From: Anaerolineaceae bacterium
GTDB taxonomy: Bacteria > Chloroflexota > Anaerolineae > Anaerolineales > UBA11657
DNA: 64,000 bases
Direction of reading: 5' to 3'
Assembly (NCBI GenBank): GCA_003569365.1
Contig: BGOS01000003.1
Coordinates: 192,315-256,314 of the forward strand
In this document: positions 9,318 to 35,309 of the stretch, piece by piece
Layout of the letters: the number at the start of each line of letters is the position of its first letter
Numbering within the stretch: position 1 is the stretch's first letter
Made by a program: the position numbers and the translations under genes
The notes under the pieces: generated by a model
Seen by the model: only the letters and a program-made list of their open reading frames with translations
What the model was told of the DNA's origin: nothing
The model's database searches: none

Positions 9318-9423
9318 CGCGGGTGGGCACGATGCGTGTCGGAGCCGGTTGGCGGTGCTTGACATACGCTATGATTGAGATGCGAGCGGCGGTGATCTGC
9401 CAGTTTGCCAGGGAGGATCTTAG

Positions 9424-10413: not shown

Positions 10414-10466
10414 TATGCGGTTTGGGTCTGCAGCAGAACATTTAACAACGAGCGAAATCATATATT

Positions 10467-11672: not shown

Positions 11673-11700
11673 GGCTTTACGCACAGTTTGCTATTAAGTC

Positions 11701-12651: not shown

Positions 12652-12896
12652 GGACTGGAGGGCGTGTGGCGTGGGTTGGAGCACAGTGGCGCTGGGGATG
12701 CGCGTGCTGAGGAGATCATGCGGTGGGGATGTCTGTCACCAATCAGGGCGACAGCTGATGTTTGGTGTTTGCTGGCAGGTGGTGCATAATTGCGTGGTAG
12801 ACTTGCGACCGTTGGGAAGCGAAACGTGAGTTTTATTCTGGCCGATGAGTTTGTTTTTGATTAGTTGGGGTAACTGAAAAACGGAGGAGAACGAAA

Positions 12897-15311: not shown

Positions 15312-15350
15312 TCTGTTGGGGAGTAACCCTTCAGTTTAGTGTTGTAGAAG

Positions 15351-15382
15351 CCTTGCCCCTTCCGCCGTTGGAAGGGGCAAGG
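15351..15382 (+). promoter_or_regulatory. Perfect 13-bp intercistronic stem-loop between the SBP gene and the ATPase gene
   Basis: CCTTGCCCCTTCC (15351-15363), loop GCCGTT, then GGAAGGGGCAAGG (15370-15382). No U-tract follows, so a processing/stability element or partial attenuator is more likely than a full terminator. Confidence 0.5.
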
Positions 15383-15396
15383 TGCTTTAACCTCCT

Positions 15397-18958: not shown

Positions 18959-19163
18959 TGCCGGCGGTTGGGAGCAAGCTGCGCGGCGGCTTCCACTTGT
19001 TGAGTTTGAATTAAAATACGATTGGCTCAATGGTATGTTTGCTACAAGATTGCATTGCGGTGGCAGGCGTGTAGTGCGTGGTTTGTTTGCTGCATGGATG
19101 CTGAGTTAAGGCCGCGCTTGCAGGCTTTTGCCGGCACAGCAGCGTTTGTAAAAGTAGTTACGA

Positions 19164-20441: not shown

Positions 20442-20453
20442 GGAGTTGACTGC

Positions 20454-21278
20454 GTGAAAATTTTGATTGCAGCGGACATGGAGGGCGTCACCGGCGTTGT
20501 GAACTGGGATCACGTCGATCCGGCGCACGCTGAGTACCAGCGATTCCGCCGGTTGATGACCGCCGATGTGAACGCTGCGGTATGCGGTGCGTATTTAGGC
20601 GGAGCCTCCGCGGTTACGGTAACGGATGGACATTGGGGCAACCGTAATATTTTGATTGAGGAACTTGAAGAGCGGGCGACGTTACAAAGCGGTGGCACGC
20701 GCCCGCTGGCTATGGTTCAGGGTGTCGAAGCGGATGTGGCGGGTGTTTGCTTTGTGGGGTACCACGCGCGGGCTGGTTCGCAGTATGCTGTGCTGGACCA
20801 TACATGGTCTGACACCACTGTAGCCAACTTGCGGTTGAACGGAGAGGTGGTTGGCGAGATCGGCCTGAATGCTGCGGTGTGCGGCCACTTTAATGTTCCA
20901 GTGGTTATGATCTCTGGCGATCAGACTGCGTGCAAAGAGGCGCTTGAGTTGCTGGGCGGGCTGGAAGTGGCAACAGTGAAGCAGGCGCAAGGGCGGATGG
21001 CAGCAGACTGCCTGCCGCCGGTGGTTTCGCAGCGCCGCATCTGCGAGGCGGCGGCGCGCGCAGTTGCGCGCGTGGTGGCGGGAACCGCACCCGCGCCGTT
21101 TCGGCTGGTGCTGCCAGTGATGGTTGAGATTGAGTTTATGCAGTCTGACATGGCGGACCGCGCGAGTCTGGTTCCGGGCAGCCAGCGCGGGGCCGACCGC
21201 TGCGTGCAGTTTGAGGCACGCGATATGCTTGCGGCTTATAACGCGTTCAGAACATTGTGTGCGACATCGCGCAACTAG
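20454..21278 (+). CDS. M55-family metallopeptidase (DppA-type D-aminopeptidase)
   Basis: 274 aa. GTG start. The N-terminus MKILIAADMEGVTGV plus GYHARAG and EIGLNAA are typical of the M55 family. Confidence 0.85.
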   Translation: MKILIAADMEGVTGVVNWDHVDPAHAEYQRFRRLMTADVNAAVCGAYLGGASAVTVTDGHWGNRNILIEELEERATLQSGGTRPLAMVQGVEADVAGVCFVGYHARAGSQYAVLDHTWSDTTVANLRLNGEVVGEIGLNAAVCGHFNVPVVMISGDQTACKEALELLGGLEVATVKQAQGRMAADCLPPVVSQRRICEAAARAVARVVAGTAPAPFRLVLPVMVEIEFMQSDMADRASLVPGSQRGADRCVQFEARDMLAAYNAFRTLCATSRN

Positions 21279-21299
21279 CAATGGTCAAGGATACAACAA

Positions 21300-22766
21300 A
21301 TGATTGATTTGACGGTGGATCGGAAGACTGTGGAGCGCAATGCAAAACGCGCGCGCGAGCGCAACGTGCTTATTCCAACGCTGGCGCAGCAAGTTGCGCC
21401 GCAGACGGCGCCTGCAAAAATTCGAGAGCGGCTGAAAGGCATTGGGCTGTGGGACGTGGATCCCGCAAATTTGTTCCGGATCTCGTGGCATAACGCGCCG
21501 GCTGCGCGTGGCGGCGGGTTCGGTCCGGTGAATTACATCGAGTTTCCGTCGAGCATCACCGGGGTGCAGGCGCGCATCGTCGCGATTGTGGGCAAGTGGT
21601 TTCCCACTGGTGCGCACAAGGTGGGTCCGGCATTCGGCTGCTTGGTGCCGCGGCTGGTGAGCGGCCAGTTTGATCCCACGCGTCAGAAGGCGGTGTGGCC
21701 TTCAACCGGCAACTATTGCCGCGGCGGTGCCTATAACTCCGCCTTGCTGGGTTGCGAGTCCGTGGCCATCCTGCCGGAGGGCATGAGCGCGGAGCGCTTT
21801 GAGTGGCTGCAAACGATGGCGGGTGAAGTAATAAAGACGCCTGGATCCGAAAGCAATGTCAAAGAAATTTTTGATAAGTGCAATGAACTGCGCAAGTCTG
21901 GAACCGACCTGATGATCTTTGATCAATTTCAAGAGATGGGCAACTACCTCTGGCATTATTCCGTGACCGGCCGGGCACTGGAAGAGGTGGTGCGCCGATC
22001 GCTCGGCAGCGGCGATTCGTTTGCCGGTTTTGTGAGCCACACGGGTTCGGCCGGCACGATTGCGGCGGGTGATTATTTGAAGCAGCAGTTTCCGCACAGC
22101 AAGATTGTTGCAAGTGAGGCGTTGCAGTGTCCAACGTTGATCCAGAATGGTTTTGGGGCGCACCGGATCGAGGGCATTGGCGACAAGCATGTGCCGTGGA
22201 TTCACAACATCCGCAATACGGATATGGTAATGGCGGTGGATGATGACGCGGCAATGGCGATCACGCGACTGTTCAATGAGCCGGCGGGGCAGCGTCTGCT
22301 CGCCGGGAAGGGAGTGCCGGAGGCACTTGTGACGCGCCTTCCAGAACTTGGTATCTCATGTGTGGCTAATTTAATTGCGTCTATTCAATTCGCCAAGTGG
22401 TACGAGCTTGGGCCCAACGATGTGGTGGCCACCGTGCTCACGGACTCGATGGAGCTCTATCAAAGCCGCCTGCGTGAGCTAACAGAGCAGCACGGCGAGT
22501 TTGATGACCGCGCCGCGGCGGTGGCTTACGAGCGCCATCTTTTAGGTGCGCATACGGCCAATGTGCAGGAGCTGACGTACCCCGAGCGCAAGCGCGTGCA
22601 TAACCTTAAGTACTTTACATGGGTGGAGCAACAGGGCAAGGCAACGGCGGAGTTGAACGCGCAGTGGGAGCAGACTTCGTTTTGGACCGGAGTGCAGGGC
22701 CAGATGGGGGAAATGGATGCGTTGATTGATGAATTCAATGGCCGCTCCGGGTTGGCGGAGAACTGA
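21300..22766 (+). CDS. Long-form PLP-dependent enzyme of the Trp-synthase-beta/cysteine-synthase fold
   Basis: 488 aa. Probable PLP lysine in FPTGAHKVGPAFG, then STGNYCRGGAYNSALLG. Carries a ~90-aa N-terminal extension and a ~120-aa C-terminal extension relative to cysteine synthases. Confidence 0.7.
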   Translation: MIDLTVDRKTVERNAKRARERNVLIPTLAQQVAPQTAPAKIRERLKGIGLWDVDPANLFRISWHNAPAARGGGFGPVNYIEFPSSITGVQARIVAIVGKWFPTGAHKVGPAFGCLVPRLVSGQFDPTRQKAVWPSTGNYCRGGAYNSALLGCESVAILPEGMSAERFEWLQTMAGEVIKTPGSESNVKEIFDKCNELRKSGTDLMIFDQFQEMGNYLWHYSVTGRALEEVVRRSLGSGDSFAGFVSHTGSAGTIAAGDYLKQQFPHSKIVASEALQCPTLIQNGFGAHRIEGIGDKHVPWIHNIRNTDMVMAVDDDAAMAITRLFNEPAGQRLLAGKGVPEALVTRLPELGISCVANLIASIQFAKWYELGPNDVVATVLTDSMELYQSRLRELTEQHGEFDDRAAAVAYERHLLGAHTANVQELTYPERKRVHNLKYFTWVEQQGKATAELNAQWEQTSFWTGVQGQMGEMDALIDEFNGRSGLAEN

Positions 22767-22823
22767 GCGTAGATATTACGTGCCTGGCACGCAAGCTTGA
22801 ATACTGAGTAAATCTGGAGAACT

Positions 22824-24743
22824 ATGGCGACTACGAACATCAAGGATGACGCGACCACACAGGCGGGGGAGCCAGTGCGGTTTCAGGCGGAAATCCGGCA
22901 GCTGCTTGATATTCTGGTGCACTCGCTTTATACGCGCCGGGAAGTGTTTTTGCGCGAGTTGATTTCGAATGCGTCGGATGCGCTGAACCGCATGCAATTT
23001 GAAATGCTTACCAATACGGATGTGGTGGATCCGGAGGTTTCGGCTGCGATACGGATTACGGTTGATGAGTCCGGCAAGCGCCTGACAATTAGTGACAGCG
23101 GGGTGGGAATGTCGCGCACTGAGCTGGTTGAGAACCTTGGCACTATCGCCCGTTCGGGTGCGCAGCGCTTCATTGAAAATGCCAAGGAAACTGGCACTGA
23201 TGCGACCGACATCATTGGGCGGTTCGGGGTGGGTTTCTACTCGGTGTTTATGATTGCGGACGAGGTGCGGGTTACCTCACGCTCTTTTCGGCCGGAGGAT
23301 GAGGCTGCGTGTTGGGTGTGTGCGGGCGGCGAAACATTTACCTTGGAGGCGTCGGACCGCAGCCACCGGGGCACCGTGATTGAGCTTAAGCTGCGCGAGG
23401 AAGCGGCGGAGTTTGCGGATGCATTTCGCATTACGCAAATTGTGAAGCAGCACTCGGATTATGTGCCGTTCCCAATTTATGTGGGCAAGCTAACTGACAA
23501 AGCCGGCGAGTTCAAGATTGCCAATCAGCAGACGGCGCTGTGGCGGCAGCCGGCGCGGGATGTGAAGACCGGCGAGTATGTTGAGTTCTTCCGGCAGCTT
23601 ACGTTTAGCGGCGGCGAGCCACTGTTGCAAATTCATTACGCGGCGGATGCGCCGGTTCAGATTTACAGTATTTTGTTTGTGCCTCCCAAGGCCAGCCGGG
23701 ATCTGTTCACGGCGCGCTATGAGAGTGGGATCCGGCTGCATGCGCGCAAGATATTGATTGAGGAAAATTGCCGGGCGCTGGTGCCTGAGTACCTGCGGTT
23801 CTTGCAAGGGGTTGTGGATTGCGAGGACTTGCCATTGAATGTTGCGCGTGAAAATGTGCAGTCGAGTCCATTGCTTGTGAAAATCAGCCGTGTGCTTGGC
23901 CGCAAAGTTGTGGATGAGTTCAAGAAGCTTGCGCTGAATGATGCTGACAAGTATCTTGGATTCTGGAACGAGTTTGGCATATTTCTCAAGGAGGGGGCTG
24001 CCACGGACCCGGAAGCGGCGACCGACTTGATGGAATTGTTGCGCTTCCGCAGCACGCGCGTGGATGGGGAGGTGACGGCGCTTGCGGAGTACGTGCAGCG
24101 GGTGAAGGATGATCGGAAGGAAATATATTATCTGCTGGCAGACGATCTGCGGACTGCCACCCGCAGCCCGCACCTTGATTATTTCAAGCGCAATGGTTAT
24201 GAGGTATTGCTGCTGATCGAACCGGTGGATGCGTTCCTGATGGCAAATGTGCGTGAGTTTGACGGCCACAAGCTGGTCAACGTTGCGTCAGGAGAGATGA
24301 AATTGCCGCCGGCTGCAGCTGCCGATGATGCGGTGGTTGAGGAAGCGCTTGCCGGGCGCGATCTTGCGCGGCTGATTGTTAAGTTCAAGAGCCAGCTGGG
24401 CTTGCGGGTTGCTGATGTGCGGGACACAGACCGGTTATCGGATTCGCCGGTGCGGCTGGTGGACTCTGGCGGCGCGCCCGGCCGGGAAGTGCAACGGGCA
24501 ATGCGCGCCATGGATCGCGAATACGAACAGCCGAAGATGGTGCTTGAATTAAACGCACGGCATCCGCTGCTGCGCAGTTTGGTGCATCTGCCAGAGCCGA
24601 GCGAGATCTTGGATTTGTGCGTGGAACAGCTGTTTGATGCAGCGCTACTGCTGGAAGGGCTGCACCCTGATCCCGCGGGAATTGTGCCGCGCCTGCAAGA
24701 GCTGATGCAGGCTGCTGTCGGCAAAACCACCCCAGCTGAGTAG
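22824..24743 (+). CDS. htpG: Molecular chaperone HtpG (Hsp90)
   Basis: 639 aa. Motifs FLRELISNASDALNR, DSGVGM, GRFGVGFYS, PLNVARE. Confidence 0.95.
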   Translation: MATTNIKDDATTQAGEPVRFQAEIRQLLDILVHSLYTRREVFLRELISNASDALNRMQFEMLTNTDVVDPEVSAAIRITVDESGKRLTISDSGVGMSRTELVENLGTIARSGAQRFIENAKETGTDATDIIGRFGVGFYSVFMIADEVRVTSRSFRPEDEAACWVCAGGETFTLEASDRSHRGTVIELKLREEAAEFADAFRITQIVKQHSDYVPFPIYVGKLTDKAGEFKIANQQTALWRQPARDVKTGEYVEFFRQLTFSGGEPLLQIHYAADAPVQIYSILFVPPKASRDLFTARYESGIRLHARKILIEENCRALVPEYLRFLQGVVDCEDLPLNVARENVQSSPLLVKISRVLGRKVVDEFKKLALNDADKYLGFWNEFGIFLKEGAATDPEAATDLMELLRFRSTRVDGEVTALAEYVQRVKDDRKEIYYLLADDLRTATRSPHLDYFKRNGYEVLLLIEPVDAFLMANVREFDGHKLVNVASGEMKLPPAAAADDAVVEEALAGRDLARLIVKFKSQLGLRVADVRDTDRLSDSPVRLVDSGGAPGREVQRAMRAMDREYEQPKMVLELNARHPLLRSLVHLPEPSEILDLCVEQLFDAALLLEGLHPDPAGIVPRLQELMQAAVGKTTPAE

Positions 24744-24806
24744 CACCGGGTGGTGGCTTATGATCGTGCCGGATTTTGGACAGTTGATTAGAAGCGCATT
24801 GATGCT

Positions 24807-25838
24807 GTGAAGATTAATATTCTGGGTGGTGGGCCGGCCAGTCTCTACTTCGCCATATTGATGATGAAGCGAGACCCGGCGCACGTGATAACAGTATTTG
24901 AGCGTGACGGACCGGAGGACACCTTTGGGTGGGGCATTGTATTTTCTGGGCGTACCTTTCAATTTCTGGAGGAGAATGATGCACTGAGCCATGCCCGGAT
25001 AGTCGCCTGCTCCCAAACTTGGGAGGATGTCATCATCGGGCATCCGCTTGAAACGATTGCGATTGGGGGCAATTTATTCTCTGGTATTGCGCGGCTTACA
25101 TTCCTGAATATTCTGCAGCAGCGCTGCCTTGAGCTTGGGGTGGACTTGCGGTACCACGCCAACATTGGAGCAGAGCAGCTGCCGGCGCTGCGCGAGTGCG
25201 ACTTGTTTGTTGGGGCAGATGGTTCCAACAGCATGTTTCGCAAGTACTATGAAGATCTGTTCTTGCCAACAATTGATTTGCGGCAAAACAAGTTTGTTTG
25301 GCTCGGCACACCGCAGTCCTTTGATGGCTTGGCGATGTATTTCCGCGAGAACGCGGCTGGAGTTTTTATTGCGCATGCGTACCGCTTTGTTGCGGCTGAT
25401 AAACCGTTGAACGGGGCTTGCAGCACATTTGTGGTGGAGTGCGCACCGGAAACCTGGCTGCGGGCGGGCCTCGATAAGATGGGCGAGGCAGATACCTGCG
25501 CTTATTTGGCCGGTGTGTTTGCCGAGCCGCTGCAGGGCCATGCGCTGCTGGCCAACAAGTTTTTGCGCTGGTTGAATTTTCCGATTGTGAAGAACAAGCG
25601 CTGGCATCATGGCAATCTGGTGTTGCTGGGTGACGCGCTGCATACGGCGCATTTTTCGATTGGAAGTGGAACCAAGCTTGCGCTTGAAGACGCGGCTGCA
25701 CTGGCCGATGCGTTTTCCGGCCAGCGCAGCGTACCTGCGGCGTTGTCAGAGTTTGAGCGCAAGCGTAAGCGGTGGGTGGATGAGTTTCAAGATGCCGCGC
25801 TGCGCAGTCCTTACCTGGCTGGAAAATGTTGGTGGTGA
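24807..25838 (+). CDS. FAD-dependent aromatic-ring monooxygenase of the salicylyl-CoA 5-hydroxylase / 2-aminobenzoyl-CoA monooxygenase type (3' end frameshifted)
   Basis: GTG start. Motifs ILGGGPASLYFA (dinucleotide-binding GxGxxG), GADGSNS, LLGDALHTAHFSIGSGTKLALEDA. After ...QDAALRS the conserved continuation (LTWLENV...FAYRAQTRS) lies in the +1 frame. Confidence 0.8.
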   Translation: MKINILGGGPASLYFAILMMKRDPAHVITVFERDGPEDTFGWGIVFSGRTFQFLEENDALSHARIVACSQTWEDVIIGHPLETIAIGGNLFSGIARLTFLNILQQRCLELGVDLRYHANIGAEQLPALRECDLFVGADGSNSMFRKYYEDLFLPTIDLRQNKFVWLGTPQSFDGLAMYFRENAAGVFIAHAYRFVAADKPLNGACSTFVVECAPETWLRAGLDKMGEADTCAYLAGVFAEPLQGHALLANKFLRWLNFPIVKNKRWHHGNLVLLGDALHTAHFSIGSGTKLALEDAAALADAFSGQRSVPAALSEFERKRKRWVDEFQDAALRSPYLAGKCWW

Positions 25839-25983
25839 GCTTGCGGGTGATCCGGTTGCGTTTGCATACCGCGCGCAAACGCGCAGCAAGCGCGTTGGCT
25901 ATAGCCGCGTCAAGCGCACTGCGCCAGACTTTGCTGCGCGCTATGACAGCTGGAAGGACCGGCAGCCGCCTGCAGCCGGCCCG

Positions 25984-26385
25984 GTGCCAACAGAATGGCT
26001 GGACCTTTTTTGCAAGCGCAGCTTTGGCCACCTTGCGACGCTCATGTCCGACGGCACACCTCATGTCACTCCGGTGTGGGTTGATTACGATGGCACGCAT
26101 GTGCTGGTCAACTCCGCGCGCGGTCGCTTGAAGGATAAGCACATGGAGGCGCGGCCGGATGTTGCACTTGAGATTCAGGACCCCGACAATCCTAACCGTT
26201 ACTTGCTTGTGCGCGGCGCTGTGGCTTCAATTAGCGAAGCCGATGCCGATGAGCAGTTGGATGCGATGTCGCCGCGCTATTTGAATCGGGAGAAATATCC
26301 AGCGGGTATGCGCTTTCCTGGTGAAGTGCGGCGGTTGTATAAGATTAAGCCGAAGAGTGTTGTATTTTGGGATCCGTTTGGATGA
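25984..26385 (+). CDS. PPOX-class (pyridoxamine-5'-phosphate-oxidase-like, F420/FMN split-barrel) domain; either a separate protein or the C-terminal domain of the upstream monooxygenase
   Basis: Motifs FGHLATLMSDGTPHVTPVWVDYDGTHVLVNSARGRLKDKHMEARPDVALEI..RYLLVRGAV..KIKPKSVVFWDP. The frame is open from 25609. A GTG at 25984 is possible but has no RBS. Confidence 0.7.
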   Translation: MPTEWLDLFCKRSFGHLATLMSDGTPHVTPVWVDYDGTHVLVNSARGRLKDKHMEARPDVALEIQDPDNPNRYLLVRGAVASISEADADEQLDAMSPRYLNREKYPAGMRFPGEVRRLYKIKPKSVVFWDPFG

Positions 26386-27158
26386 GTGCTGTGCAACGGG
26401 TGGCTTGGGTTACGGGGGCGGGGCGGGGCATTGGCGAGGTTACTGCGCGCGAGCTGGCGGCTGCCGGTTACAAGGTGGCTGTGTCTGCGCGAACAGTAAA
26501 CGATGTTGAGCGTGTCGCGGAATCGATCTGTGCGGCTGGCGGAATTGCGGTGGCCGTGCCATGTGATGTGACGCTGCCGGCTTCGGTGTCGGCGGCTGCC
26601 GGTCGCATTAGCGCCGCGCTGGGGGTGGTGGGTGTCTTGATCAACAATGCCGGGGCTGCAGAGTCGCATAAGTTTGTGGGGCATGACGATGAACTCTGGC
26701 AGCGCATGCTGAACGCAAATCTCAATTCTGTATATTTTGTGACGAAGTCCGTTGTCGGGGGAATGGTTGCAGCAAACTGGGGGCGAATTGTGACGGTGGC
26801 TTCGATTGCTGCGCGGGTGGGGGGCAAATACATCGCCGCGTATACGGCCAGCAAACATGGCGTGCTGGGACTTACCCGCGCGCTTGCGGTGGAACTCGTC
26901 GCGCATAATATTACGGTGAATGCAGTTTGTCCGGGGTATGTTGACACCGCCATGACCGCAAACTCAGTGGAAAACATCAGCAGGCGCACCAACACTAGTC
27001 TCGATGAAGCGCGGGCGGCCCTTGAAAAGTTGAATCCGCAGCAGCGTTTAATCGCGCCGGCAGAAGTGGCGCGCGTTGTGCTGATGTTGGCAGGGGAAGC
27101 GAGTGCTGGGATTACGGGCCAAGCCATCAACGTTGATGGCGGCATGGTGATGAGCTAG
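26382..27158 (+). CDS. Short-chain dehydrogenase/reductase (3-hydroxyacyl-CoA dehydrogenase-like)
   Basis: ATG at 26382 forms an ATGA overlap with the upstream stop. Motifs VTGAGRGIG, NNAG, YTASKHG (YxxxK). Confidence 0.85.
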   Translation: MSAVQRVAWVTGAGRGIGEVTARELAAAGYKVAVSARTVNDVERVAESICAAGGIAVAVPCDVTLPASVSAAAGRISAALGVVGVLINNAGAAESHKFVGHDDELWQRMLNANLNSVYFVTKSVVGGMVAANWGRIVTVASIAARVGGKYIAAYTASKHGVLGLTRALAVELVAHNITVNAVCPGYVDTAMTANSVENISRRTNTSLDEARAALEKLNPQQRLIAPAEVARVVLMLAGEASAGITGQAINVDGGMVMS

Positions 27159-27257
27159 AGCGTGTTGTGTGCGTGCGGCTTTCGGCACTTTACGGCGATG
27201 GCACTCGTCTATGATATTTCGAGTGCTCAACTTGGAAGCTGGTGTGGCTAGGGTGCT

Positions 27258-28057
27258 ATGAAGCGGGATAAGTTTGACTTCGAGTATGTGGTGCGCGACG
27301 GAGTGGCGACGATCACCCTCAATCGGCCAGAGGTGTTAAACGCACTGACATTCGAAATCTATGCGCAGCTGCGGGACTTGTTCGAGGAGTTGCGCTACGA
27401 AGATGAGTGAAGGCGGTTGTGATTACCGGCGCCGGGCGCGGGTTTTGCTCAGGCGGGGATGTACACAAGATTATTGGCGAAATGCTCGGGCGTGACATGC
27501 ATGCGCACCTTGAGTTTTGCCGGATGACGGGACATTTAATTCGGAATATGCGCTTGCTTCCCAAGCCGATCGTGGCGGCCGTGAATGGGTTGGCAGCGGG
27601 GGCCGGTGCTGTAATTGCACTTGCCGCTGACTTCCGGGTGCTGGCTGACAGTGCGCGTTTCGCATTCTTGTTTAGTCGCGTGGGACTTACGGGCGCAGAC
27701 ATGGGGGCGGCTTTCTTGCTGCCGCGGGTTGTTGGGCAGGGGCGCGCTGCGGAGTTGCTGATGCTGGGCGATGACTTGGATGCGGCTGCTGCCGAGCGGT
27801 GCGGACTGGCGAACCGCGTAGTTTCCGGAGAGCGGGTACTGGAGGTGGCGCAGGAGCTGGCGCTGCGGTTGGCTGCCGGCCCGGTGTATGCGACCGGGGT
27901 TACCAAACTCATGCTGAACAATGCGTGGACGATGGACATTAGCACTGCGCTGGAGTCTGAGGCGCAAGCGCAGGCGTTGATGATGATGGGCGCTGATCAC
28001 CGCGCTTTTTACGAAGCGTTTGTTGATAAACGGGCGGCCAAGTTCACGGGTCGGTGA
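27258..28057 (+). pseudogene. Enoyl-CoA hydratase/isomerase (crotonase), split by a 1-nt frameshift at 27407-27410
   Basis: A 50-codon ORF at 27258..27410 (MKRDKFDFEYVVRDGVATITLNRPEVLNALTFEIYAQLRDLFEELRYEDE*) is the crotonase N-terminus. ORF 27407..28057 continues with VKAVVITGAGRGFCSGGD...AAVNGLAAGAGAVIALAADFR. Together they form one canonical domain. Confidence 0.8.
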
Positions 28058-28085
28058 GTGATGAATTGGTTTAAGGTGGAGCGGC

Positions 28086-28490
28086 ATGAAGCGACAGGTT
28101 ATTAATCCTGCAAGCCTTGCGCCGCCATCGGGCTACGTCTACGGTTTGGCTACAGAGGGCGGGCGCGTGCTGCACCTTGCGGGTCAAACCAGCATGGACG
28201 CGAGCGGGCGGATTGTTTTCCCCGGAGATATTGTGGCGCAATTCGGCCAAGCGCTTGCAAATATATTGTGTGTGGTGGAGGCAGCTGGCGGTGACGGCAG
28301 TGCGATTGTGAAGCTCACCATTTTTGTCATTGATAAACGGGGCTACCGTGAAAATTTGCGCCGCGTCGGCGAGAAGTACCGGTCACTGATGGGGAAGCAT
28401 TATCCGCCCATGACGCTGGTGGAAGTAAAGAGCTTGTTTGATGACGAAGCCATGGTTGAGATTGAGGGTGTGGCTGTGCTCGATAGCTGA
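28086..28490 (+). CDS. RidA/YjgF-family enamine/imine deaminase
   Basis: 134 aa. Motifs LHLAGQTSMD, typical RidA length, C-terminal VEIEGVAV. Confidence 0.9.
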   Translation: MKRQVINPASLAPPSGYVYGLATEGGRVLHLAGQTSMDASGRIVFPGDIVAQFGQALANILCVVEAAGGDGSAIVKLTIFVIDKRGYRENLRRVGEKYRSLMGKHYPPMTLVEVKSLFDDEAMVEIEGVAVLDS

Positions 28491-28608
28491 ATGTGGATCA
28501 ATGCTCACATGCATGGGGCGCCGAGATTTCGACGTGTGGGTGCTTTTGTTTGGACAACAAAATGAGCAGCCTGCGAACCGGCCGTGCTTGGGTTGGTAGC
28601 TGGTAATT

Positions 28609-29766
28609 ATGGAATTTTCACTTAGCGCTACGCAAGCGGCGGTACAACAGCTTGCGCGCAAGTTTGCTGATGAGCGCGTGGCTCCCCTCTCGCGAGAGAT
28701 GGATGAGCAAGGTGCCATGCCACTTGCCCTTATTTCAGATATGGCTGCGGTGGGTCTGCTGGGTGGTCCGTTGCCCGCTGAGCATGGCGGCGGAGCGTGG
28801 GATAAAGTGAGCGCGGCTCTCTGTTATGAGGAGCTGGGCCGGGTTGATTCATCGGTCCGGGGTTTTATGACTGTGCACTCCAGCCTTGTTGCGCAGTGCA
28901 TCCAGCAGTGGGGCAGCGTGGAGCAGCGCCGGCAGTATTTGCCGATGCTTATTTCTGCAGAGAGCATCGGCTGTTACTGCCTGACTGAGCCGAATGCAGG
29001 TAGTGATGCGGCCAGCATGGAGGCAACGGCTGTGCCAGATGGAGCGGGCTACCGGCTGAATGGGGAGAAAATCTGGATTACTAATGGCGGCATTGCACAG
29101 CTGGCAATTGTGTTTGCGAGCACGGACCGCACGCTGCGCCACAAAGGAGTGGGCGCATTTCTGGTGCCGACTAATGCGCCAGGATTTGTGCGTCGCAAAA
29201 TGCCGGGGCGCGAACTCGGCCATCGCGCAGCGGATCATGCCCACATTCGTCTGGAGAATATTTACGTTCCGGTCGATTCTATGTTGGGCGGGCCCGGCGA
29301 GGGTTTTCGGGTGGCCATGTCTGCGCTGGACCATGGGCGCCTGGGTGTGGCGGCGGGCGCCGTCGGAGTGGCGCAAGCCTGCCTGGATGCGAGTGTTGCG
29401 TTTGCGCGTGAGCGGCGCCAGTTTGGGCAGCGTGTGGGTGATTTTCAAATGATACAAGCTGCGCTGGCAGACATGGCGGCTGATGTGGAAGCAGCGCGGC
29501 AGCTCACCCTGCGGGCAGCATGGATGCAGGATCAGGGTCTCAAATCCACCCGCGCTACGTCGATCGCGAAATTGTTTGCAGTGGAGGCGGCGGTGCGGGC
29601 TGCCAACGAGGCGGTGTTGCTGCATGGCGGCCGTGGTTACACCAATGAGTATCCGGTGGAACGGTATTTGCGCGATATCAAAGGCTTGCAGATCTACGAG
29701 GGTACAGCGCACATCCAGCGCATAGTGATTGCGCGTGACTTGCTCGGCAAGGATACTGTGCCATAA
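28609..29766 (+). CDS. Acyl-CoA dehydrogenase
   Basis: 385 aa. Motifs CLTEPNAGSDA, WITNGG, GRGYTNEYPVERYLRD, QIYEGT. Confidence 0.9.
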   Translation: MEFSLSATQAAVQQLARKFADERVAPLSREMDEQGAMPLALISDMAAVGLLGGPLPAEHGGGAWDKVSAALCYEELGRVDSSVRGFMTVHSSLVAQCIQQWGSVEQRRQYLPMLISAESIGCYCLTEPNAGSDAASMEATAVPDGAGYRLNGEKIWITNGGIAQLAIVFASTDRTLRHKGVGAFLVPTNAPGFVRRKMPGRELGHRAADHAHIRLENIYVPVDSMLGGPGEGFRVAMSALDHGRLGVAAGAVGVAQACLDASVAFARERRQFGQRVGDFQMIQAALADMAADVEAARQLTLRAAWMQDQGLKSTRATSIAKLFAVEAAVRAANEAVLLHGGRGYTNEYPVERYLRDIKGLQIYEGTAHIQRIVIARDLLGKDTVP

Positions 29767-29815
29767 GTGGACTGAGGCAGTTGGTACTGCTCGTTTCTAG
29801 TTCGCGGAGGTAAAT

Positions 29816-31366
29816 TTGAAAGCATCTGATCTTCCCCTGGTCTACAACAGCGTGGCAATATTGGAGCATAACCTTGAGCAACGCGCGGACAAGGTGGCTC
29901 TCCTTACCCCGGAGCGCGAGCTTACATTCCGGCAAGTGTCGGAAGAGGTCAATCGTCTCGGAAACGCACTAAAGAGCTTGGATGTGCGCATGGGCGAGTA
30001 TGTGGGAATTCTTGCGCCGGATTGTGCGGAGTGGGCCGTATCCTATTTTGCAATCATGAAGATCGGGGCTATCGCGGTTGGGATGAATACTTTGCTGAAG
30101 CCGCTTGAGCATTTGTATGCGCTCAGGGATTGCCGGGCGCGGGTGCTAATCATTCATCAATCACTGCTGGCCAGCTTGCAAGGCATCCGCGACCAGCTTG
30201 ATTTCGTCGCAAACATCATTGTGGTGGGCGGTGGCGGCGAGGCCGGAGACTTGGAATACCGGTCCGTGGTGGCAGCCGGAGGAGTTCAGCTTTTGAGTGC
30301 GCCGACGCAGCGCGAGGATTACTGTGCGCTGAATTACTCCAGTGGCAGTACCGGGGAGCCCAAGGGCATTTTGCATGCGCATAAGGATCTTGCGCTTACA
30401 GCGCAGCTATGGGCCGTTGATGTGCTTGGTTTGCGTGAGAGCGATCGGACACTTGCGACGGCTAAATTATTCTTCACATTTGGTACGGGCGGCAATCTAG
30501 TATTCCCGTGGTATGTTGGAGCCAGCTGTGTTCTGATGGCTGCGCCGCCGCGGGTGGTGGGTAACGTGCTGGAGCATGTGCAGCGCTTTCAGCCGACGAT
30601 CCTGTATCACGCGCCGACTGGTTACGCTGCGGTGTTGGCAAATGAGGATTTTGTGGCTGGGAAGTATGACATATCTTCTGTGCGGCTGTGCGTGTCGGCC
30701 GGCGAGTCTTTGCCGGCTTCTGTGTGGCAGGCGTGGAAGGATCGGACGGGACTGGACATCATCGATGGCATCGGGGCCACAGAGGTGTGGCATATTTTCA
30801 TTTCCAACCGGCCTGGTGACATCCGGCCGGGAAGCAGTGGCAAGCCAGTGGCCGGCTACGATGTGCGTATCGTTGACGAAGAGGGCGCAGCGGTTGCGCA
30901 GGGCGAAGTTGGCAATCTCCTCGTGCGCGGGGAGTCTACTGCGCTTGGCTATCTGCATCAATCGGAAAAAAGTCGCAAGACATTTCTCGGGGAGTGGTTG
31001 TTTACTGGCGACAAGTATCAGGTGGATGCCGATGGTTACTACTGGCATGCGGGCCGGTCTGATGACATGTTGAAGGTTGGAGGAATTTGGGTGTCGCCGG
31101 TGGAAGTGGAGAGCACACTGGTGAGTCATGCGGCGGTGCTTGAGTGTGCGGTGGTTGGGCAACAGGACGCATCTAATCTGGTTAAACCTAAGGCATTTGT
31201 GGTTTTGAAGGAGGGTGTGGCTGCCAGCGACCAAACGCGCGATGACTTGGTGGCTTACTGCCGCGAAAAAATGGCAGATTACAAACGTCCGCGCTGGATA
31301 GAATTTGTAGATCAGCTGCCTAAGACTGCAACCGGCAAGGTGCAAAGATTTCGGCTGCGGGGATAG
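29816..31366 (+). CDS. Aryl-CoA ligase of the benzoate/2-aminobenzoate-CoA ligase family (AMP-binding)
   Basis: 516 aa. TTG start after GGAGG. Motifs YSSGSTGEPKG, TGD, KVGGIWVSP, and C-terminal PKTATGKVQRFRLR. Confidence 0.85.
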   Translation: MKASDLPLVYNSVAILEHNLEQRADKVALLTPERELTFRQVSEEVNRLGNALKSLDVRMGEYVGILAPDCAEWAVSYFAIMKIGAIAVGMNTLLKPLEHLYALRDCRARVLIIHQSLLASLQGIRDQLDFVANIIVVGGGGEAGDLEYRSVVAAGGVQLLSAPTQREDYCALNYSSGSTGEPKGILHAHKDLALTAQLWAVDVLGLRESDRTLATAKLFFTFGTGGNLVFPWYVGASCVLMAAPPRVVGNVLEHVQRFQPTILYHAPTGYAAVLANEDFVAGKYDISSVRLCVSAGESLPASVWQAWKDRTGLDIIDGIGATEVWHIFISNRPGDIRPGSSGKPVAGYDVRIVDEEGAAVAQGEVGNLLVRGESTALGYLHQSEKSRKTFLGEWLFTGDKYQVDADGYYWHAGRSDDMLKVGGIWVSPVEVESTLVSHAAVLECAVVGQQDASNLVKPKAFVVLKEGVAASDQTRDDLVAYCREKMADYKRPRWIEFVDQLPKTATGKVQRFRLRG

Positions 31367-31605
31367 GCTGTCTATTTTCAGCCGCTAACCCATTCTCTTG
31401 GATGGTTTTGCGTGGCTCCTGAAGCGTGGTTGGATAAAGTTCACAGAGTAGACTAGTGGTTGCATAGTATCGCCGCAGCAAGAATTGGGATGGCAATGTT
31501 CGCTGCAGTACTGGAAATATGTAGTTGTGGGTGCAGTTGGCGCCGGGGTATGTCTCCAGCGCGTCGCGCCAGTTGTTGTTGGAAACGAGCTGTGAGGATA
31601 CATTG

Positions 31606-33957
31606 ATGACAGATACGGGTAAGGTGCATCGCTATTTGGGAAAAGGCCATAGGTTAATTGAAGGTCAGGATAAGGTGTCCGGGCGTGTTAAGTACACTGC
31701 TGATCTAAGGCTGGCCGGGATGGTCTACTTGCGTCCGGTCCTTAGCCCCCATGCGCATGCTTCGATTGTTTCTTACAAGCTTGATGCGGCGCGGCTGGTT
31801 CCGGGAGTGGTTGCTGTGCTGACTGATGAGGATTTGTGCACCAGAGATACGGTGATTAATTCCCGGTCCAGCGCCGTGCTCGCGCGCGGTGTTGTTATGT
31901 TTAGAGGCCAGCCGGTGGTGGCTGTGGTGGCGGAGAGTGAGGCAGCGGCGCAGAGTGGGGCTGATGCGGTTGAGATCGAGTACTCACCACTGCCGGCTGT
32001 GGTTGATCCGGAGCGGGCAATTAAGGCCGATGCGCATGTGCTGTGGCCGAATGGTGTGCCCAAAGAGGGCGCGGACTTGACGGCGCAGCACGGTGCCAGT
32101 GCGAAGGAGACTGCCAAGGTTGTGCGTGCATACTCCAACCTGCATAATGAGCATCATTTCGGGCGCGGTAATGTCGAGCATGGTTTCGAGGAGGCTCACG
32201 TCGTCATCGAGCGGGTGTACCGGACTCCGATTGTGCATCAGGGATACATGGAGCCGCATTCGGTGGTGTGTGATCCGGATACGCTTGCCCAGAGCATCAC
32301 CATCTACACAAGCACGCAGGGGCAATACATTGTGCGGGACGAAACCGCGCGAATTCTTCGCCTACCCAAACGGCAAGTGCGGGTGGTGCCGATGGCAGTT
32401 GGTGGTGGATTTGGCGCAAAGTATGGCTCGCTTGAGCCGTTGGTGGGGGCTGTGGCGCTGGCGATTGGCCGACCGGTGCAGCTTGTGCTAACGCGGTCAG
32501 AAGATTTTCTAACCACCACGCCGTCCCCGGCTTGCATTATTGAATTGAAGACGGGTGCGAGCCGGGATGGAAAAATCACCGCGATTGAGGCGCGCGTCAA
32601 GCTGGATAATGGTGTGTTTCCATTTGAGCTTGGTGGAATTGTGGGAATGCTGCTCGGGGGCTACTATAAGTGCGCCAATGTAGATATTAAGTGCTTAGAG
32701 GTACTTACAAATAAACCACAAAGCGGCGCCTATCGGGCGCCGGGTGCTCCTTCCGCAACACTGGCGATTGAATCGAACGTTGATGACATGGCGCACGCGC
32801 TTGGAATTGATCCACTTGAATTTCGCTATGCCAATGCGGCTGAGACGGGTGACCCATGTGGCAACGGCGATCCTTGGCCGAATATTGGACTGAAGCAGTG
32901 TTTGGAGCGAATGCGAGTACATCCTTTATGGCAGCAGCGGCGAGGTAGTACTGGCGTGCGAACGGAGAATGTCCATAATGGACGATCTTTCAAATCCGGC
33001 TTAGGCAGCGATCGAAAGCAGACCGGGGTTGGGATTGCGGTCGGAGGCTGGCCTTGCGGAATGGGGCCTGCGTCGGCGGTGTGCCGGGTCGACTCGGATG
33101 GCACTGTGCGAGTGCACGTAGGTACTGTTGATGTGTCTGGATCCAACAGTAGTTATGTGCTGGTTGCGGCTGAGGTGCTTGGTGTATCCCCGGACAAGAT
33201 TGAGATTGTGCAGGGTGACACCAGTAGTGGCCCATTCGGGCCTCCAAGTGGCGGAAGCCAAACTACTTACAGTACGGCTGGTGCGGTGGCGGGCGCTGCG
33301 CAAGTGGTGCGGGACCGGCTGCTGCAGATGGCCAGTGATCACTTTGAGGCTAGCGTGGATGATTTGGAAGTACGCGATGGTTTTGTTTTTGTGAAGGGGG
33401 TTCCTGATCGGAGTGTGGGTTTTGGCGCGCTGGCTTCTACAGCTGAGAGTAAAAAAGGTGGCCCGGGACCGGTAATTGGTGAGGGGCGGGCTGCGGTTGA
33501 GGAAAATGCGCCGGGATTTGTGGTTCATCTTGCCAAGGTGGAGATAGATACTGACACCGGGCATGTGGAAGTTGTGGATTATGTTGCGATACAAGATGTC
33601 GGCTTTGCACTCAACCCGACGATGGTGGAGGGTCAGATTCACGGGGGGGTGGCGCAGGGGATTGGCTGGGGGTTGCATGAAGCGATGCTGTACGATGACA
33701 ACGGTCAGTTGCTTACCGGTACTTTTATGGACTACGATTTACCCAAGATTGAGCAAGTACCAAATATGGAAGTAATCCTAATAGAGAATCCTTCGCCGCT
33801 TGGCCCGTTTGGTGCGCGCGGTATTGGTGAGCCGCCGATTGTGCCGGGTGCGGCGGCAATTGGCAACGCGATTAGAGATGCAATCGGGGCCCGGCTTTGC
33901 GAATTGCCGATGCGCCCCGAGGCTGTGTGGCGAGCGCTTCAAAGTATCGAACGATAG
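31606..33957 (+). CDS. Xanthine-dehydrogenase/aldehyde-oxidase-family molybdopterin-binding subunit
   Basis: I chose the ATG at 31606 (MTDTGKVHRYLGKGHRLIEGQDKVSGRVKYTADL), preceded by GAGGA. Motifs GGGFG, YRAPG, and GIGEPP near the C-terminus. Confidence 0.85.
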   Translation: MTDTGKVHRYLGKGHRLIEGQDKVSGRVKYTADLRLAGMVYLRPVLSPHAHASIVSYKLDAARLVPGVVAVLTDEDLCTRDTVINSRSSAVLARGVVMFRGQPVVAVVAESEAAAQSGADAVEIEYSPLPAVVDPERAIKADAHVLWPNGVPKEGADLTAQHGASAKETAKVVRAYSNLHNEHHFGRGNVEHGFEEAHVVIERVYRTPIVHQGYMEPHSVVCDPDTLAQSITIYTSTQGQYIVRDETARILRLPKRQVRVVPMAVGGGFGAKYGSLEPLVGAVALAIGRPVQLVLTRSEDFLTTTPSPACIIELKTGASRDGKITAIEARVKLDNGVFPFELGGIVGMLLGGYYKCANVDIKCLEVLTNKPQSGAYRAPGAPSATLAIESNVDDMAHALGIDPLEFRYANAAETGDPCGNGDPWPNIGLKQCLERMRVHPLWQQRRGSTGVRTENVHNGRSFKSGLGSDRKQTGVGIAVGGWPCGMGPASAVCRVDSDGTVRVHVGTVDVSGSNSSYVLVAAEVLGVSPDKIEIVQGDTSSGPFGPPSGGSQTTYSTAGAVAGAAQVVRDRLLQMASDHFEASVDDLEVRDGFVFVKGVPDRSVGFGALASTAESKKGGPGPVIGEGRAAVEENAPGFVVHLAKVEIDTDTGHVEVVDYVAIQDVGFALNPTMVEGQIHGGVAQGIGWGLHEAMLYDDNGQLLTGTFMDYDLPKIEQVPNMEVILIENPSPLGPFGARGIGEPPIVPGAAAIGNAIRDAIGARLCELPMRPEAVWRALQSIER

Positions 33958-34085
33958 AGGAAGGGCGCACATTTACGACGAACAACCGTCCGCTACACCG
34001 CGAATTTCACCAGCTTGTCTTTAAGGTTCGGTGAAGGTCAGAGGGGGAGTTTTGAAGTGCGGTAGGTTCTTACGGGGAATAGGGA

Positions 34086-35309
34086 ATGCAATTTGATTTA
34101 GTTATCAAGGGCGGCACTGTTGTTTCGCCTGGCTGCAGGAGCGGCAGACTTGATGTTGCCATAAAGGGTAACCGAATCGCTGCGATTGAGAGCAGCTTTC
34201 CGCCTGATGCTGCGGCGCGAGTTGTGGACGCCGGCGGACTGATCGTGACTCCGGGCTTGGTTGATCTCCATACCCACGTTTATCACAACGCAACCTATTG
34301 GGGAATTGTTGCTGATCCGGTGGCGGCGCGAACCGGGGTGACAACCTGGCTGGATGTGGGTTCGGCGGGTGCCTACAATTTTGGGGGGTTCAGGCGTTGG
34401 ATTGTTGAACCTTCTCATGCAAGGATTTTTGCTCTCCTTAATATTTCATCGATCGGGTTAGCAGCTCCGACCTGGGAGTTGGCAAATCTTAATTATTGCG
34501 ACGTCGATATGTGCTGCCGCATTGTTGATGTTAGTCGCGATTTAATTTTGGGTATCAAGTGCAGAATGGATGCTAATACCACTGGCGGGAGTATGGAGCC
34601 GCTGCGACGGGCGCGGAGTGCTGCCGATAACTGTGGGCTGCCTTTGATGGTGCATGTGGGCATCGGTCCGCCGACCATCGAGCAGGTTTTGGATTTGATG
34701 CGGCCGGGCGATATTCTCACGCACTGTTTTACCGGTCACAACATGCGGATTGTTGATGAACGTGGGCTGTTGCTTGAGTGCGCCAAAAGAGCGCGTGATA
34801 CGGGTGTGGTGTTTGACATTGGGCATGGCGCAGGCAGTTTTTCATTCGATACGGCGCGGGCGTTGATTGGTAATGGTTATCTTCCGGATGTTATTTCGTC
34901 TGATATTCACCAGCTCAGTGTGAACGGCCCGCTATTTGATCTGCCCACGTGTTTGAGCAAGTTCCTGGCTCTTGGCATGTCTTTGGAGGATGTGGTGCGG
35001 GCGGCGACGGTCCGGCCGGCGTCCGTAATGCGCATGGAGCATGAGATCGGTTCGATTCGGGTTGGAGCTCTGGCTGATATTGCGTTGTTCCGGCTTGTGG
35101 AGGGAAATTTTTCTTTTTACGATGTGTTCATGCAGCGGTTGGATGGGAAGCAGTTGTTAGTTAATCAGCTGACTATTTGTGACGGGCGCGAGATGGTGTG
35201 TATGCCAGACGGCGCGCGCGCGCCTTGGATTGAGTTGAGCGCAGACCAGCGCAACCTGGCGGAGTGGGGCCATACGCCGGAGTCGATGGGGCGGTCTAAA
35301 TCCACCTGA
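34086..35309 (+). CDS. Amidohydrolase/deacetylase-family metallohydrolase
   Basis: 407 aa. Motifs LVIKGGTVV, TPGLVDLHTHVY (HxH), MVHVG, FDIGHGAGSF. Confidence 0.75.
   Translation: MQFDLVIKGGTVVSPGCRSGRLDVAIKGNRIAAIESSFPPDAAARVVDAGGLIVTPGLVDLHTHVYHNATYWGIVADPVAARTGVTTWLDVGSAGAYNFGGFRRWIVEPSHARIFALLNISSIGLAAPTWELANLNYCDVDMCCRIVDVSRDLILGIKCRMDANTTGGSMEPLRRARSAADNCGLPLMVHVGIGPPTIEQVLDLMRPGDILTHCFTGHNMRIVDERGLLLECAKRARDTGVVFDIGHGAGSFSFDTARALIGNGYLPDVISSDIHQLSVNGPLFDLPTCLSKFLALGMSLEDVVRAATVRPASVMRMEHEIGSIRVGALADIALFRLVEGNFSFYDVFMQRLDGKQLLVNQLTICDGREMVCMPDGARAPWIELSADQRNLAEWGHTPESMGRSKST

Follow-up and report, generated by a model that had tools for sequence, protein, structure and literature searches.

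An aerobic anthranilate-CoA cassette predicted in an uncultured Chloroflexota bacterium, with a monooxygenase fused to a probably F420-dependent PPOX domain

We analysed a 64-kb stretch (64,000 nt, hereafter the window) of the metagenome-assembled genome of an uncultured Anaerolineaceae bacterium (Chloroflexota). Seven co-directional gene families lie on the plus strand between positions 24807 and 31366, and the single block outlined in a preliminary description of the DNA was recovered with all families present and with exact boundaries. All coordinates below refer to this strand. The same gene set adjoins the same monooxygenase family at dozens of loci in at least six phyla, a recurrence showing that the grouping of these genes is not due to chance.

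The block opens with an FAD monooxygenase ORF, read in the assembly at 24807-25838, and an overlapping reading frame for a PNPOx/PPOX domain at 25609-26385. A tblastn comparison with an intact homologue (P0001) aligns residues 1-334 to 24807-25808 and residues 335-525 to 25810-26382, and places a +1 frameshift at a single extra C at 25809. Both domains had been recognized in the preliminary description, which missed that they form one gene and not two ORFs: a 525-aa fusion of an anthraniloyl-CoA-type FAD monooxygenase and a PPOX (FDOR-B) domain (24807..26385). A contig that is 99.06% identical to the window (L001) carries the fusion intact, and more than 120 homologous clusters of 515–535 aa have both Pfam domains in common; on these sequence grounds the fusion is real. 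It was found in metagenomes of Chloroflexota and Methylomirabilota/Rokubacteria. All 18 monooxygenase domains taken from fusions fall into one clade, with stand-alone monooxygenases as its sister group, a topology that points to a single origin of the fusion.

The group A FAD monooxygenase domain (24807..25962) matches positions 1-387 of the 768 positions of NF006101 (E 1.5e-114, 383.7 bits), the NCBIfam model of 2-aminobenzoyl-CoA monooxygenase/reductase and bifunctional salicylyl-CoA 5-hydroxylase/oxidoreductase. The domain is thus homologous to the N-terminal half of these enzymes, and the fusion protein stays below the curated cut-off of the full model (1078 bits). Its assignment to the monooxygenases that act on CoA esters, made before from the letters alone, holds: VioD follows NF006101 (384 bits) at 231 bits, and generic models of free-acid hydroxylases reach at most 68 bits. 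An AF2 model of the domain (pLDDT 84) has VioD (8gqr, E 1e-31) as its best Foldseek match, and the fold resembles those of VioD and KMO.

The remainder of the protein (25963..26385) consists of a linker and a split-barrel PPOX/FDOR-B domain, which is probably a reductase that uses F420H2. With 86.9 bits, the domain exceeds the cut-off (79.05) set for TIGR03618, a family of F420-dependent PPOX proteins. The PPOX domain proposed in the preliminary description is therefore real, while its class is that of the F420-dependent FDOR-B/PPOX proteins and not that of flavin reductases; the claim that the reductase module differs from the usual one is borne out, the C-terminus being PPOX rather than an Old Yellow Enzyme-type (OYE) domain. 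The closest PDB sequence is the mycobacterial MSMEG_3380 (3F7E; 32% identity), and the six best Foldseek matches of the domain model (pLDDT 89.8) are MSMEG_3380 F420 reductase, Rv2074-F420 and Rv1155-F420. Relatives within the FDOR-B/PPOX group can bind FMN, FAD or haem. Judged from sequence and fold, F420 is somewhat favoured as the cofactor of the domain, and an F420-type LLM gene lies elsewhere in the window (9424-10413). F420 production or F420 biosynthesis genes have been reported for Chloroflexota and for Methylomirabilota/Rokubacteria (PMC8498797), so that the taxonomy of the fusion is consistent with this cofactor.

The next gene shares its first 4 nt with the end of the fusion gene, stop codon included, and encodes a short-chain dehydrogenase/reductase (SDR) of 258 aa (26382..27158, within an ORF from 26367; adh_short, E 1.5e-54). 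It is called at 11575-12351 in L001, and an SDR gene stands beside the monooxygenase in 10/12 loci of the PPOX type. A crotonase of the PRK08258 type follows (27258..28057), which comprises 266 aa after repair of a −1 frameshift (an A missing at 27405) and then scores 380 bits against NF006107 (cut-off 330); its orthologues in the cassettes of other phyla share 49–78% identity. A Rid (YjgF/UK114) family protein (28086..28490; Ribonuc_L-PSP, 68.8 bits) had been described as RidA. The family assignment stands, whereas the identification as RidA was rejected, because TIGR00004 yields 53.9 bits (cut-off 106) and the catalytic arginine, Arg105 in E. coli TdcF numbering, is replaced by Met here and in 58/65 cassette homologues. 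By sequence, the protein belongs to an Arg-less subfamily that is specific to the cassette. We propose that it acts as a deaminase for an enamine or imine CoA ester; as a counterpoint to this role, Arg105, which it lacks, is essential for imine hydrolysis by known Rid proteins (PMC4433059). An acyl-CoA dehydrogenase of 385 aa (28609..29766) contains all three ACAD Pfam domains, and its best NCBIfam models (acryloyl-CoA reductase, glutaryl-CoA dehydrogenase and cyclohexanecarbonyl-CoA dehydrogenase) all remain below cut-off. As in abm-type clusters, these beta-oxidation-like genes (SDR, PRK08258 crotonase, acyl-CoA dehydrogenase) adjoin the monooxygenase.

The last gene (29816..31366) encodes a CoA ligase of 516 aa, with 65.6% identity across 515 residues to AuaEII (PDB 4WV3; 767 bits), a characterized anthranilate-CoA ligase (PMC10295502). 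The earlier assignment to the benzoate/2-aminobenzoate type, as opposed to ligases of aliphatic acids, agrees with this match. The ligase also exceeds the cut-off of TIGR02262, the benzoate-CoA ligase family (559 bits, cut-off 375), and its best match among benzoate-CoA ligases proper (2V7B, 390 bits) attains about half of the AuaEII score. All ligases adjoining PPOX-type monooxygenases are 65–70% identical to AuaEII. We therefore predict from homology that the ligase is specific for anthranilate, as is characteristic of abm-type clusters, and the block as a whole very probably encodes an aerobic CoA-dependent catabolic cassette for anthranilate (2-aminobenzoate).

The reading that we prefer, an aerobic anthranilate-CoA cassette with the PPOX step placed as follows, has a probability of about 0.7. 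The ligase would form 2-aminobenzoyl-CoA, a step strongly supported by homology, and the N-terminal FAD domain would hydroxylate C5 of the ring using O2 and NAD(P)H, as supported at the family level. The PPOX/FDOR-B domain could then transfer a hydride, most likely from F420H2, to the labile non-aromatic dienone ahead of re-aromatization; the product would be 2-amino-5-oxocyclohex-1-ene-1-carbonyl-CoA. The classical enzyme uses its OYE domain for this step. The Arg-less Rid protein may accelerate enamine/imine hydrolysis to 2,5-dioxocyclohexane-carbonyl-CoA and ammonium, and PRK08258 crotonase, SDR and acyl-CoA dehydrogenase, named here without regard to their sequence of action, may bring about ring opening and a beta-oxidation-like breakdown of the chain. 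The reaction of the classical enzyme, 2-aminobenzoyl-CoA monooxygenase/reductase (ACMR), has been described (PMC4539516), and a CoA ester that fits cyclohexanedione-carboxyl-CoA occurs in anthranilate-grown Arthrobacter cells (PMC3534580). We give even odds to a role of the PPOX domain as the reductase of the monooxygenase product.

Three other explanations bear on substrate, PPOX function and integrity of the locus. That the substrate is salicylate, processed by a salicylyl-CoA 5-hydroxylase towards gentisate, or a different aryl acid (benzoate or 3-hydroxybenzoate, for example), is very improbable. The best NCBIfam model of the monooxygenase does bear the name of salicylyl-CoA 5-hydroxylase, and HbdA and the benzoate-CoA ligase family are among the matches of the ligase; the ligase score against the anthranilate-CoA ligase is, however, twice that against benzoate-CoA ligases, and conservation of the Rid gene likewise speaks against this reading. 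No gentisate 1,2-dioxygenase, cupin dioxygenase or thioesterase came up when the long ORFs in the window were scanned against Pfam. A salicylyl-CoA/gentisate pathway of the sdg type was rejected since neither gentisate 1,2-dioxygenase nor gentisyl-CoA thioesterase is encoded near the hydroxylase, and of the two routes named in the preliminary description, 2-aminobenzoyl-CoA and salicylyl-CoA, only the former is retained. Anthranilate is a breakdown product of tryptophan. Kynureninase and tryptophan dioxygenase were not found in the window, and their presence in relatives supports anthranilate as the substrate: of the PPOX-type loci, L004 has kynureninase inside its cassette and L166 has tryptophan 2,3-dioxygenase upstream, and among loci with a stand-alone monooxygenase the two occur in 16/22 and 13/22, respectively. 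With anthranilate as substrate, the PPOX domain might still not substitute for OYE, ring hydrogenation being left to an OYE encoded elsewhere in the genome and PPOX carrying out another step, e.g. a second enaminone reduction, an imine reduction or an FMN-dependent oxidation. We consider this arrangement unlikely. Four PPOX-type loci (L003, L082, L163 and L164) speak for it, as they additionally hold an adjacent separate OYE gene of ~500 aa; two of them are basal within the PPOX clade, which makes ancestral coexistence probable and implies that PPOX may perform a step other than that of OYE. Imine reduction is moreover known among FDOR-B enzymes, e.g. TpnL (PMC8498797). Against it, PPOX occupies the C-terminal position that the OYE domain holds in the classical enzyme, and no OYE homologue was detected anywhere in the window (E ≤ 1e-3), nor was one found within 10 kb at the window locus, L001, L004, L005, L083, L084, L088, L162, L166 and L167. 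A separate OYE gene occurs in 19/22 stand-alone loci versus 3/12 PPOX loci (Fisher p = 6e-4, loci counted without regard to phylogeny). These distributions suggest that PPOX replaces the usual OYE reductase, as in our preferred reading.

The frameshifts at 25809 and 27405, which the preliminary description had overlooked, are the only indels in a 16.5-kb alignment to L001, where both genes are unbroken (fusion 525 aa, crotonase 266 aa). This leaves two explanations, an inactive cassette in this strain or assembly errors at both sites. A decaying pseudogene cluster without function in this genome would account for the observation that both indels relative to a 99%-identical strain break cassette genes, that neither lies in a long homopolymer and that no other split gene occurs among ~50 ORFs scanned in the window. 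Two random indels would, however, both fall into the cassette portion of the aligned stretch with a chance of ~0.16. Substitutions relative to L001 lie mostly at third codon positions, which indicates selection, and the frameshifts coincide with or adjoin segments where the strains diverge more strongly, in a genome assembled from a metagenome. In a second GenBank assembly, HtpG and Rid proteins are identical to those of the window and, by accession numbering, enclose 3 CDS versus 5 here, from which we infer that the genes are intact there. Taken with these points, decay of the cluster is unlikely, and we retain the anthranilate cassette as the preferred reading.

Compared with known systems, the pathway itself is already known, and the variant feature is an oxygenase fused to a PPOX domain that is probably F420-dependent. 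With ACMR (AbmA) and the abm clusters of Azoarcus evansii (Schuhle et al. 2001, as cited in PMC4539516), the cassette shares a CoA ligase followed by a thioester oxygenase, a homologous N-terminal FAD domain, a second redox domain at the C-terminus and nearby beta-oxidation-like genes. It differs in (i) the C-terminal domain, a split barrel of ~140 aa here versus a non-homologous OYE TIM barrel of ~380 aa, (ii) protein length (525 versus ~770 aa), (iii) the hydride donor, probably F420H2 versus NADH/FMN, and (iv) its host, a member of the Chloroflexota. The ligase falls into the AuaEII subclade, whereas ligases beside OYE-fused enzymes are 33–44% identical to AuaEII. With AuaEII of Stigmatella aurantiaca it shares the ANL fold, full-length similarity and presumably the reaction; AuaEII, however, primes polyketide biosynthesis of aurachin (PMC10295502), while the ligase here is part of a catabolic cassette. 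SdgC of Streptomyces sp. WA46 has the family model NF006101 in common with the fusion, and unlike the sdg gentisate route the cassette lacks the OYE half, gentisate 1,2-dioxygenase and thioesterase and contains Rid and beta-oxidation genes instead. The mycobacterial FDOR-B proteins MSMEG_3380 (3F7E), Rv1155 (4QVB) and Rv2074 (5JAB) have the same split-barrel fold (TM-score 0.81–0.84); they stand alone with ~130–150 aa and their physiological substrates are mostly unassigned (PMC8498797), whereas PPOX here is fused to a monooxygenase in a defined catabolic pathway. Clusters of Acidobacteriota (e.g. L010, Pyrinomonadaceae) contain a sister monooxygenase (~50% identical) and likewise Rid, PRK08258 crotonase, SDR and acyl-CoA dehydrogenase; unlike the PPOX type they lack PPOX, encode OYE as a gene of its own (~496 aa) and include kynureninase and tryptophan dioxygenase.

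The aerobic 2-aminobenzoyl-CoA route was omitted from GapMind for lack of knowledge (PMC9007349), and since 2001 its steps past the ACMR reaction have still not been elucidated. Across all three architectures the monooxygenase is accompanied by SDR, PRK08258 crotonase, Met-for-Arg Rid, acyl-CoA dehydrogenase and ligase, which constitute the obvious five-gene candidate set for these steps; for the Rid protein, this provides a candidate substrate for a subfamily of unassigned function (PMC4433059). None of the roles of F420 outside Actinobacteria has been experimentally tested (PMC8498797), and the PPOX domain of the fusion suggests one such role that is specific enough to be assayed. More tentatively, and at somewhat less than even odds, the fusion would be an F420H2-dependent dearomatizing anthraniloyl-CoA monooxygenase/reductase, in which FDOR-B does the job of the non-homologous OYE and the Arg-less Rid protein serves as enamine-CoA deaminase. 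If so, an F420-dependent reductase outside Actinobacteria would for the first time have a defined physiological substrate, F420 would take part in the tryptophan/anthranilate catabolism of Chloroflexota and Methylomirabilota, and one Rid group without the catalytic arginine would gain a function. The fusion cleanly exemplifies the exchange of a reductase module for an unrelated one on an unchanged oxygenase scaffold. In public records, it is annotated as two genes here and elsewhere named after the PPOX domain alone, and both the split record and the PPOX-only naming call for correction.

Open reading frames on the forward strand match all seven gene families of the block, so that the gene list and coordinates of the preliminary description (24807-31366) proved correct: an FAD monooxygenase (24807-25838), a PNPOx/PPOX split-barrel domain (in the frame of 25609-26385), an SDR (26367/26382-27158), a crotonase in two ORF pieces (27258-27410 plus 27407-28057), a Rid/YjgF protein (28086-28490), an acyl-CoA dehydrogenase (28609-29766) and an AMP-forming ligase (29816-31366). 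The htpG gene (22824-24743) lies upstream; the GenBank proteins of the window are GBL36509-GBL36533, and exact protein matches assign it to a metagenome-assembled genome of the Anaerolineaceae/Anaerolineae (Chloroflexota). A promoter and terminator scan of 22500-32000 was uninformative, with counts at or close to shuffle expectation.

Two of these genes are interrupted in the window. The monooxygenase ORF ends at 25838, and its conserved C-terminal helices resume in the next frame and run directly into the PPOX domain; the crotonase ORF lacks the first 40 profile positions, which form a 50-codon ORF in another frame. We aligned window positions 14807-31362 to the Logan contig L001 at 99.06% identity with only two indels, an extra C at 25809 and a missing A at 27405 in the window, and L001 carries both genes intact, one for a monooxygenase-PPOX fusion of 525 aa and the other for a crotonase of 266 aa. 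The single-base skip in the fusion gene was confirmed by tblastn of the intact protein onto the window. The two frameshifts may be real strain-specific lesions or they may be assembly errors: the window sequence comes from a metagenome-assembled genome, both indel sites are dinucleotide runs without long homopolymers, and in a second GenBank assembly, whose HtpG and Rid proteins are identical to those here, 3 CDS lie between the two versus 5 in the window, as inferred from accession numbering. Substitutions between the window and L001 fall chiefly in third codon positions, so the genes have been under purifying selection.

Divergence from L001 is patchy between 24807 and 29766: the monooxygenase, the acyl-CoA dehydrogenase and the C-terminal portion of the crotonase show 22-28 substitutions per kb, the flanking genes 2-10 per kb and the Rid gene 0; this pattern suggests recombination or strain-mixed assembly. 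Synteny with L001 stops exactly at the ligase stop codon. Downstream (31362-35309), the window encodes a xanthine-dehydrogenase-family Mo subunit on its own, without adjoining FAD or 2Fe-2S subunit genes, and a PRK09237 amidohydrolase; L001 instead has genes for an MFS transporter and an Amidohydro_2 protein.

The monooxygenase belongs, as first proposed, to the family acting on CoA esters. After repair it matches positions 1-387 of 768 (E 1.5e-114) of NF006101, the model for the bifunctional salicylyl-CoA 5-hydroxylase/oxidoreductase, whereas generic hydroxylases reach at most 68 bits; the next hit is VioD (231 bits). The full-length cut-off of 1078 bits is missed because the OYE half is missing. 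A PDB search found no solved structure for this monooxygenase family, and an AF2 model (pLDDT 84.4) most resembles VioD, followed by kynurenine 3-monooxygenases. Foldseek with the full-length fusion model returned matches to the monooxygenase domain only, and structural matches for PPOX were therefore obtained from a separate model of that domain.

The ligase passes TIGR02262, the benzoate-CoA ligase family (559 bits, cut-off 375). Among solved structures it matches the anthranilate-CoA ligase AuaEII (4WV3) with 767 bits and 65.6% identity over 515 residues, versus 390 bits for the best benzoate-CoA ligase structure, and among the loci listed all ligases adjoining PPOX-type monooxygenases are 65-70% identical to AuaEII. 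In aurachin biosynthesis, AuaEII is the enzyme forming the anthranilate-CoA thioester (PMC10295502). The likeness originally drawn to both 2-aminobenzoyl-CoA and salicylyl-CoA routes is thus retained on the anthranilate side. The cluster differs from the salicylate/gentisate route, which we rejected since neither a gentisate dioxygenase nor a thioesterase is encoded by the long ORFs of the 64-kb window and the ligase lies much nearer to an anthranilate-CoA ligase. For the crotonase, SDR and dehydrogenase we considered the order of chemical steps, and the sequence data decide none.

The remaining domain was initially described as a flavin-reductase-like PPOX domain; the PPOX assignment stands and the flavin-reductase label does not. 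It passes TIGR03618 (86.9 bits, cut-off 79.05), the Rv1155-type F420-dependent PPOX class, and the families that follow are also F420-PPOX classes. The nearest PDB sequence is MSMEG_3380 (3F7E), and the six best structural matches of the domain model (pLDDT 89.8) are MSMEG_3380, Rv2074-F420 and Rv1155-F420, with FMN-binding PNP oxidases ranked lower. MSMEG_3380 is an FDOR-B1 F420H2-dependent reductase (PMC8498797). Every named fusion homologue among the matches listed belongs to Chloroflexota or Methylomirabilota/Rokubacteria; Chloroflexi have been shown to produce F420, and genes for its biosynthesis are reported from Rokubacteria (PMC8498797). A luciferase-like protein in the window has only F420-dependent LLM families as its 15 best models, every one below its cut-off. 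Because of the TIGR03618 pass, the structural neighbours among F420 reductases, the host phyla and the F420-type LLM protein, F420H2 is the most likely hydride donor predicted for the PPOX domain. A representative search with this domain reduced the fused family to very few representatives at 50% identity; it also matched many stand-alone PPOX proteins of ~133 aa, at 45-56% identity.

Genome and metagenome scans, together with individual homologue look-ups, yielded at least 167 loci, with at least 5 PPOX-type loci from the genome scan and at least 8 from the metagenome scan; the window's own genome was not among the matches listed by either. Monooxygenases fused to OYE (~745-820 aa, at least 86 loci classified) occur in Proteobacteria, Myxococcota, Actinomycetota and others, stand-alone monooxygenases (~375-380 aa, at least 44) mostly in Acidobacteriota, and PPOX fusions (515-531 aa, at least 18) in Chloroflexota and Methylomirabilota. 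A neighbour-joining tree built on the monooxygenase domain places the PPOX fusions in a single clade (18/18), whose sister is a group of stand-alone monooxygenases. Genes for SDR, PRK08258 crotonase, Rid, acyl-CoA dehydrogenase and ligase lie beside the monooxygenase in all three architectures; this recurrence marks the cassette, with its Rid gene, as an ancient functional unit as opposed to a chance grouping. A seeming fourth architecture, the 550-aa monooxygenase of an acidobacteriotal locus (L006, 11120-11653), was rejected; its extra 170 residues are low-complexity read-through of the KSEVRGQKAE type and contain no domain.

Tryptophan catabolic genes recur in these neighbourhoods. The stand-alone locus L010 reads crotonase, SDR, Rid, PRK08258 crotonase, acyl-CoA dehydrogenase, monooxygenase, OYE, kynureninase, tryptophan 2,3-dioxygenase and ligase, and among the stand-alone loci listed kynureninase is present in 16/22 and tryptophan dioxygenase in 13/22. 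Within the PPOX type, L004 (Anaerolineae) carries kynureninase inside the cassette and L166 has tryptophan dioxygenase directly upstream. Judged by these neighbours, the monooxygenase family, and the PPOX clade specifically, is tied to anthranilate made from tryptophan.

The PPOX domain is C-terminal, the position held by the OYE domain in the classical enzyme, and the 64-kb window contains no OYE homologue (E<=1e-3); both observations fit functional replacement of OYE by PPOX. Trapping the dienone ahead of its re-aromatisation requires a reductase next to the oxygenase. Among the loci listed with enough flank, a separate OYE gene of ~500 aa accompanies 19/22 stand-alone monooxygenases versus 3/12 PPOX fusions (Fisher's p = 6e-4, loci treated as independent of phylogeny), and the separate OYE proteins share only 26-33% identity with the OYE portion of the OYE-fused enzymes. 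Ene-reductases are known among FDOR-type enzymes (PMC8498797). Functional replacement is our leading model, still unproven, and we place its probability at about one half. PPOX may alternatively have had, or still have, a step separate from that of OYE, as the joint presence of PPOX and OYE in L003, L082, L163 and L164 would suggest; the scarcity of OYE beside PPOX fusions and its absence from the window speak against this alternative. Since L003 and L163 are basal in the PPOX clade, PPOX and OYE probably coexisted initially. Examples of the separate OYE lie at 3981-5489 in L164 and at 11263-12753 (-) in L010; that of L164 extends ~150 residues past the OYE domain, a region that has no Pfam match and looks fibronectin-III-like by eye.

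The identification of the Rid protein as RidA did not hold up, as it scores 53.9 bits against the TIGR00004 cut-off of 106 and carries Met in place of the catalytic Arg. This Arg binds the substrate carboxylate and is essential in imine hydrolysis (PMC4433059). Met occupies the position in the window protein and in 58/65 cassette Rid proteins, across all architectures. ACMR, the 2-aminobenzoyl-CoA monooxygenase/reductase, yields an enamine. Arthrobacter cells grown on anthranilate contain a CoA ester that fits deaminated cyclohexanedione-carboxyl-CoA (PMC3534580). From the enamine product and this ester we reasonably infer that the cassette Rid is a variant adapted to a substrate without an alpha-carboxylate. 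We know of no demonstrated activity for Rid groups that lack this Arg, and deamination of the ACMR enamine product by the Arg-less Rid would for this reason be a hypothetical step.

The abm pathway of Azoarcus evansii follows the same working principle as the cluster (PMC4539516). The fusion enzyme falls outside the ACMR/NF006101 family as defined, having neither an OYE domain nor a full-length score above the cut-off, and automated annotation names its family 'anthraniloyl-CoA monooxygenase' (JGI) or 'TIGR03618 family F420-dependent PPOX class oxidoreductase' (NCBI). No paper in the searchable literature links F420 to aminobenzoyl-CoA. With >120 clusters (90% identity level) at least 59% identical to the fusion, the family is abundant.

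Elsewhere in the window, two neighbouring genes at 2760-7803 (-) encode Wzy_C (O-antigen-ligase-like) membrane proteins of very large size, 639 and 1046 aa. Three long ORFs of 334, 455 and 512 aa at 49918-52189 (-) and 54079-55617 (-) have no Pfam or NCBIfam match; the 334- and 455-aa ORFs, which overlap by ~100 nt, may be parts of a single split gene. A co-directional block at 7917-21278 (+) resembles ygeW/ygeY/carbamate-kinase-type loci for fermentation of N-heterocycles (purine-like), with an 8-oxoguanine-deaminase-like amidohydrolase (671 bits, cut-off 532), a YgeY hydrolase (459 bits, cut-off 321), the F420-type luciferase-like oxidoreductase, carbamate kinase, an ABC transporter, two PLP enzymes and a DppA D-aminopeptidase. 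At 12897-15311 (+), an ORF for an 804-aa protein joins two different solute-binding families, SBP_bac_1 and Bmp/PnrA; the fusion has the same length in L001 and 807 aa in L165 and is therefore no artefact.
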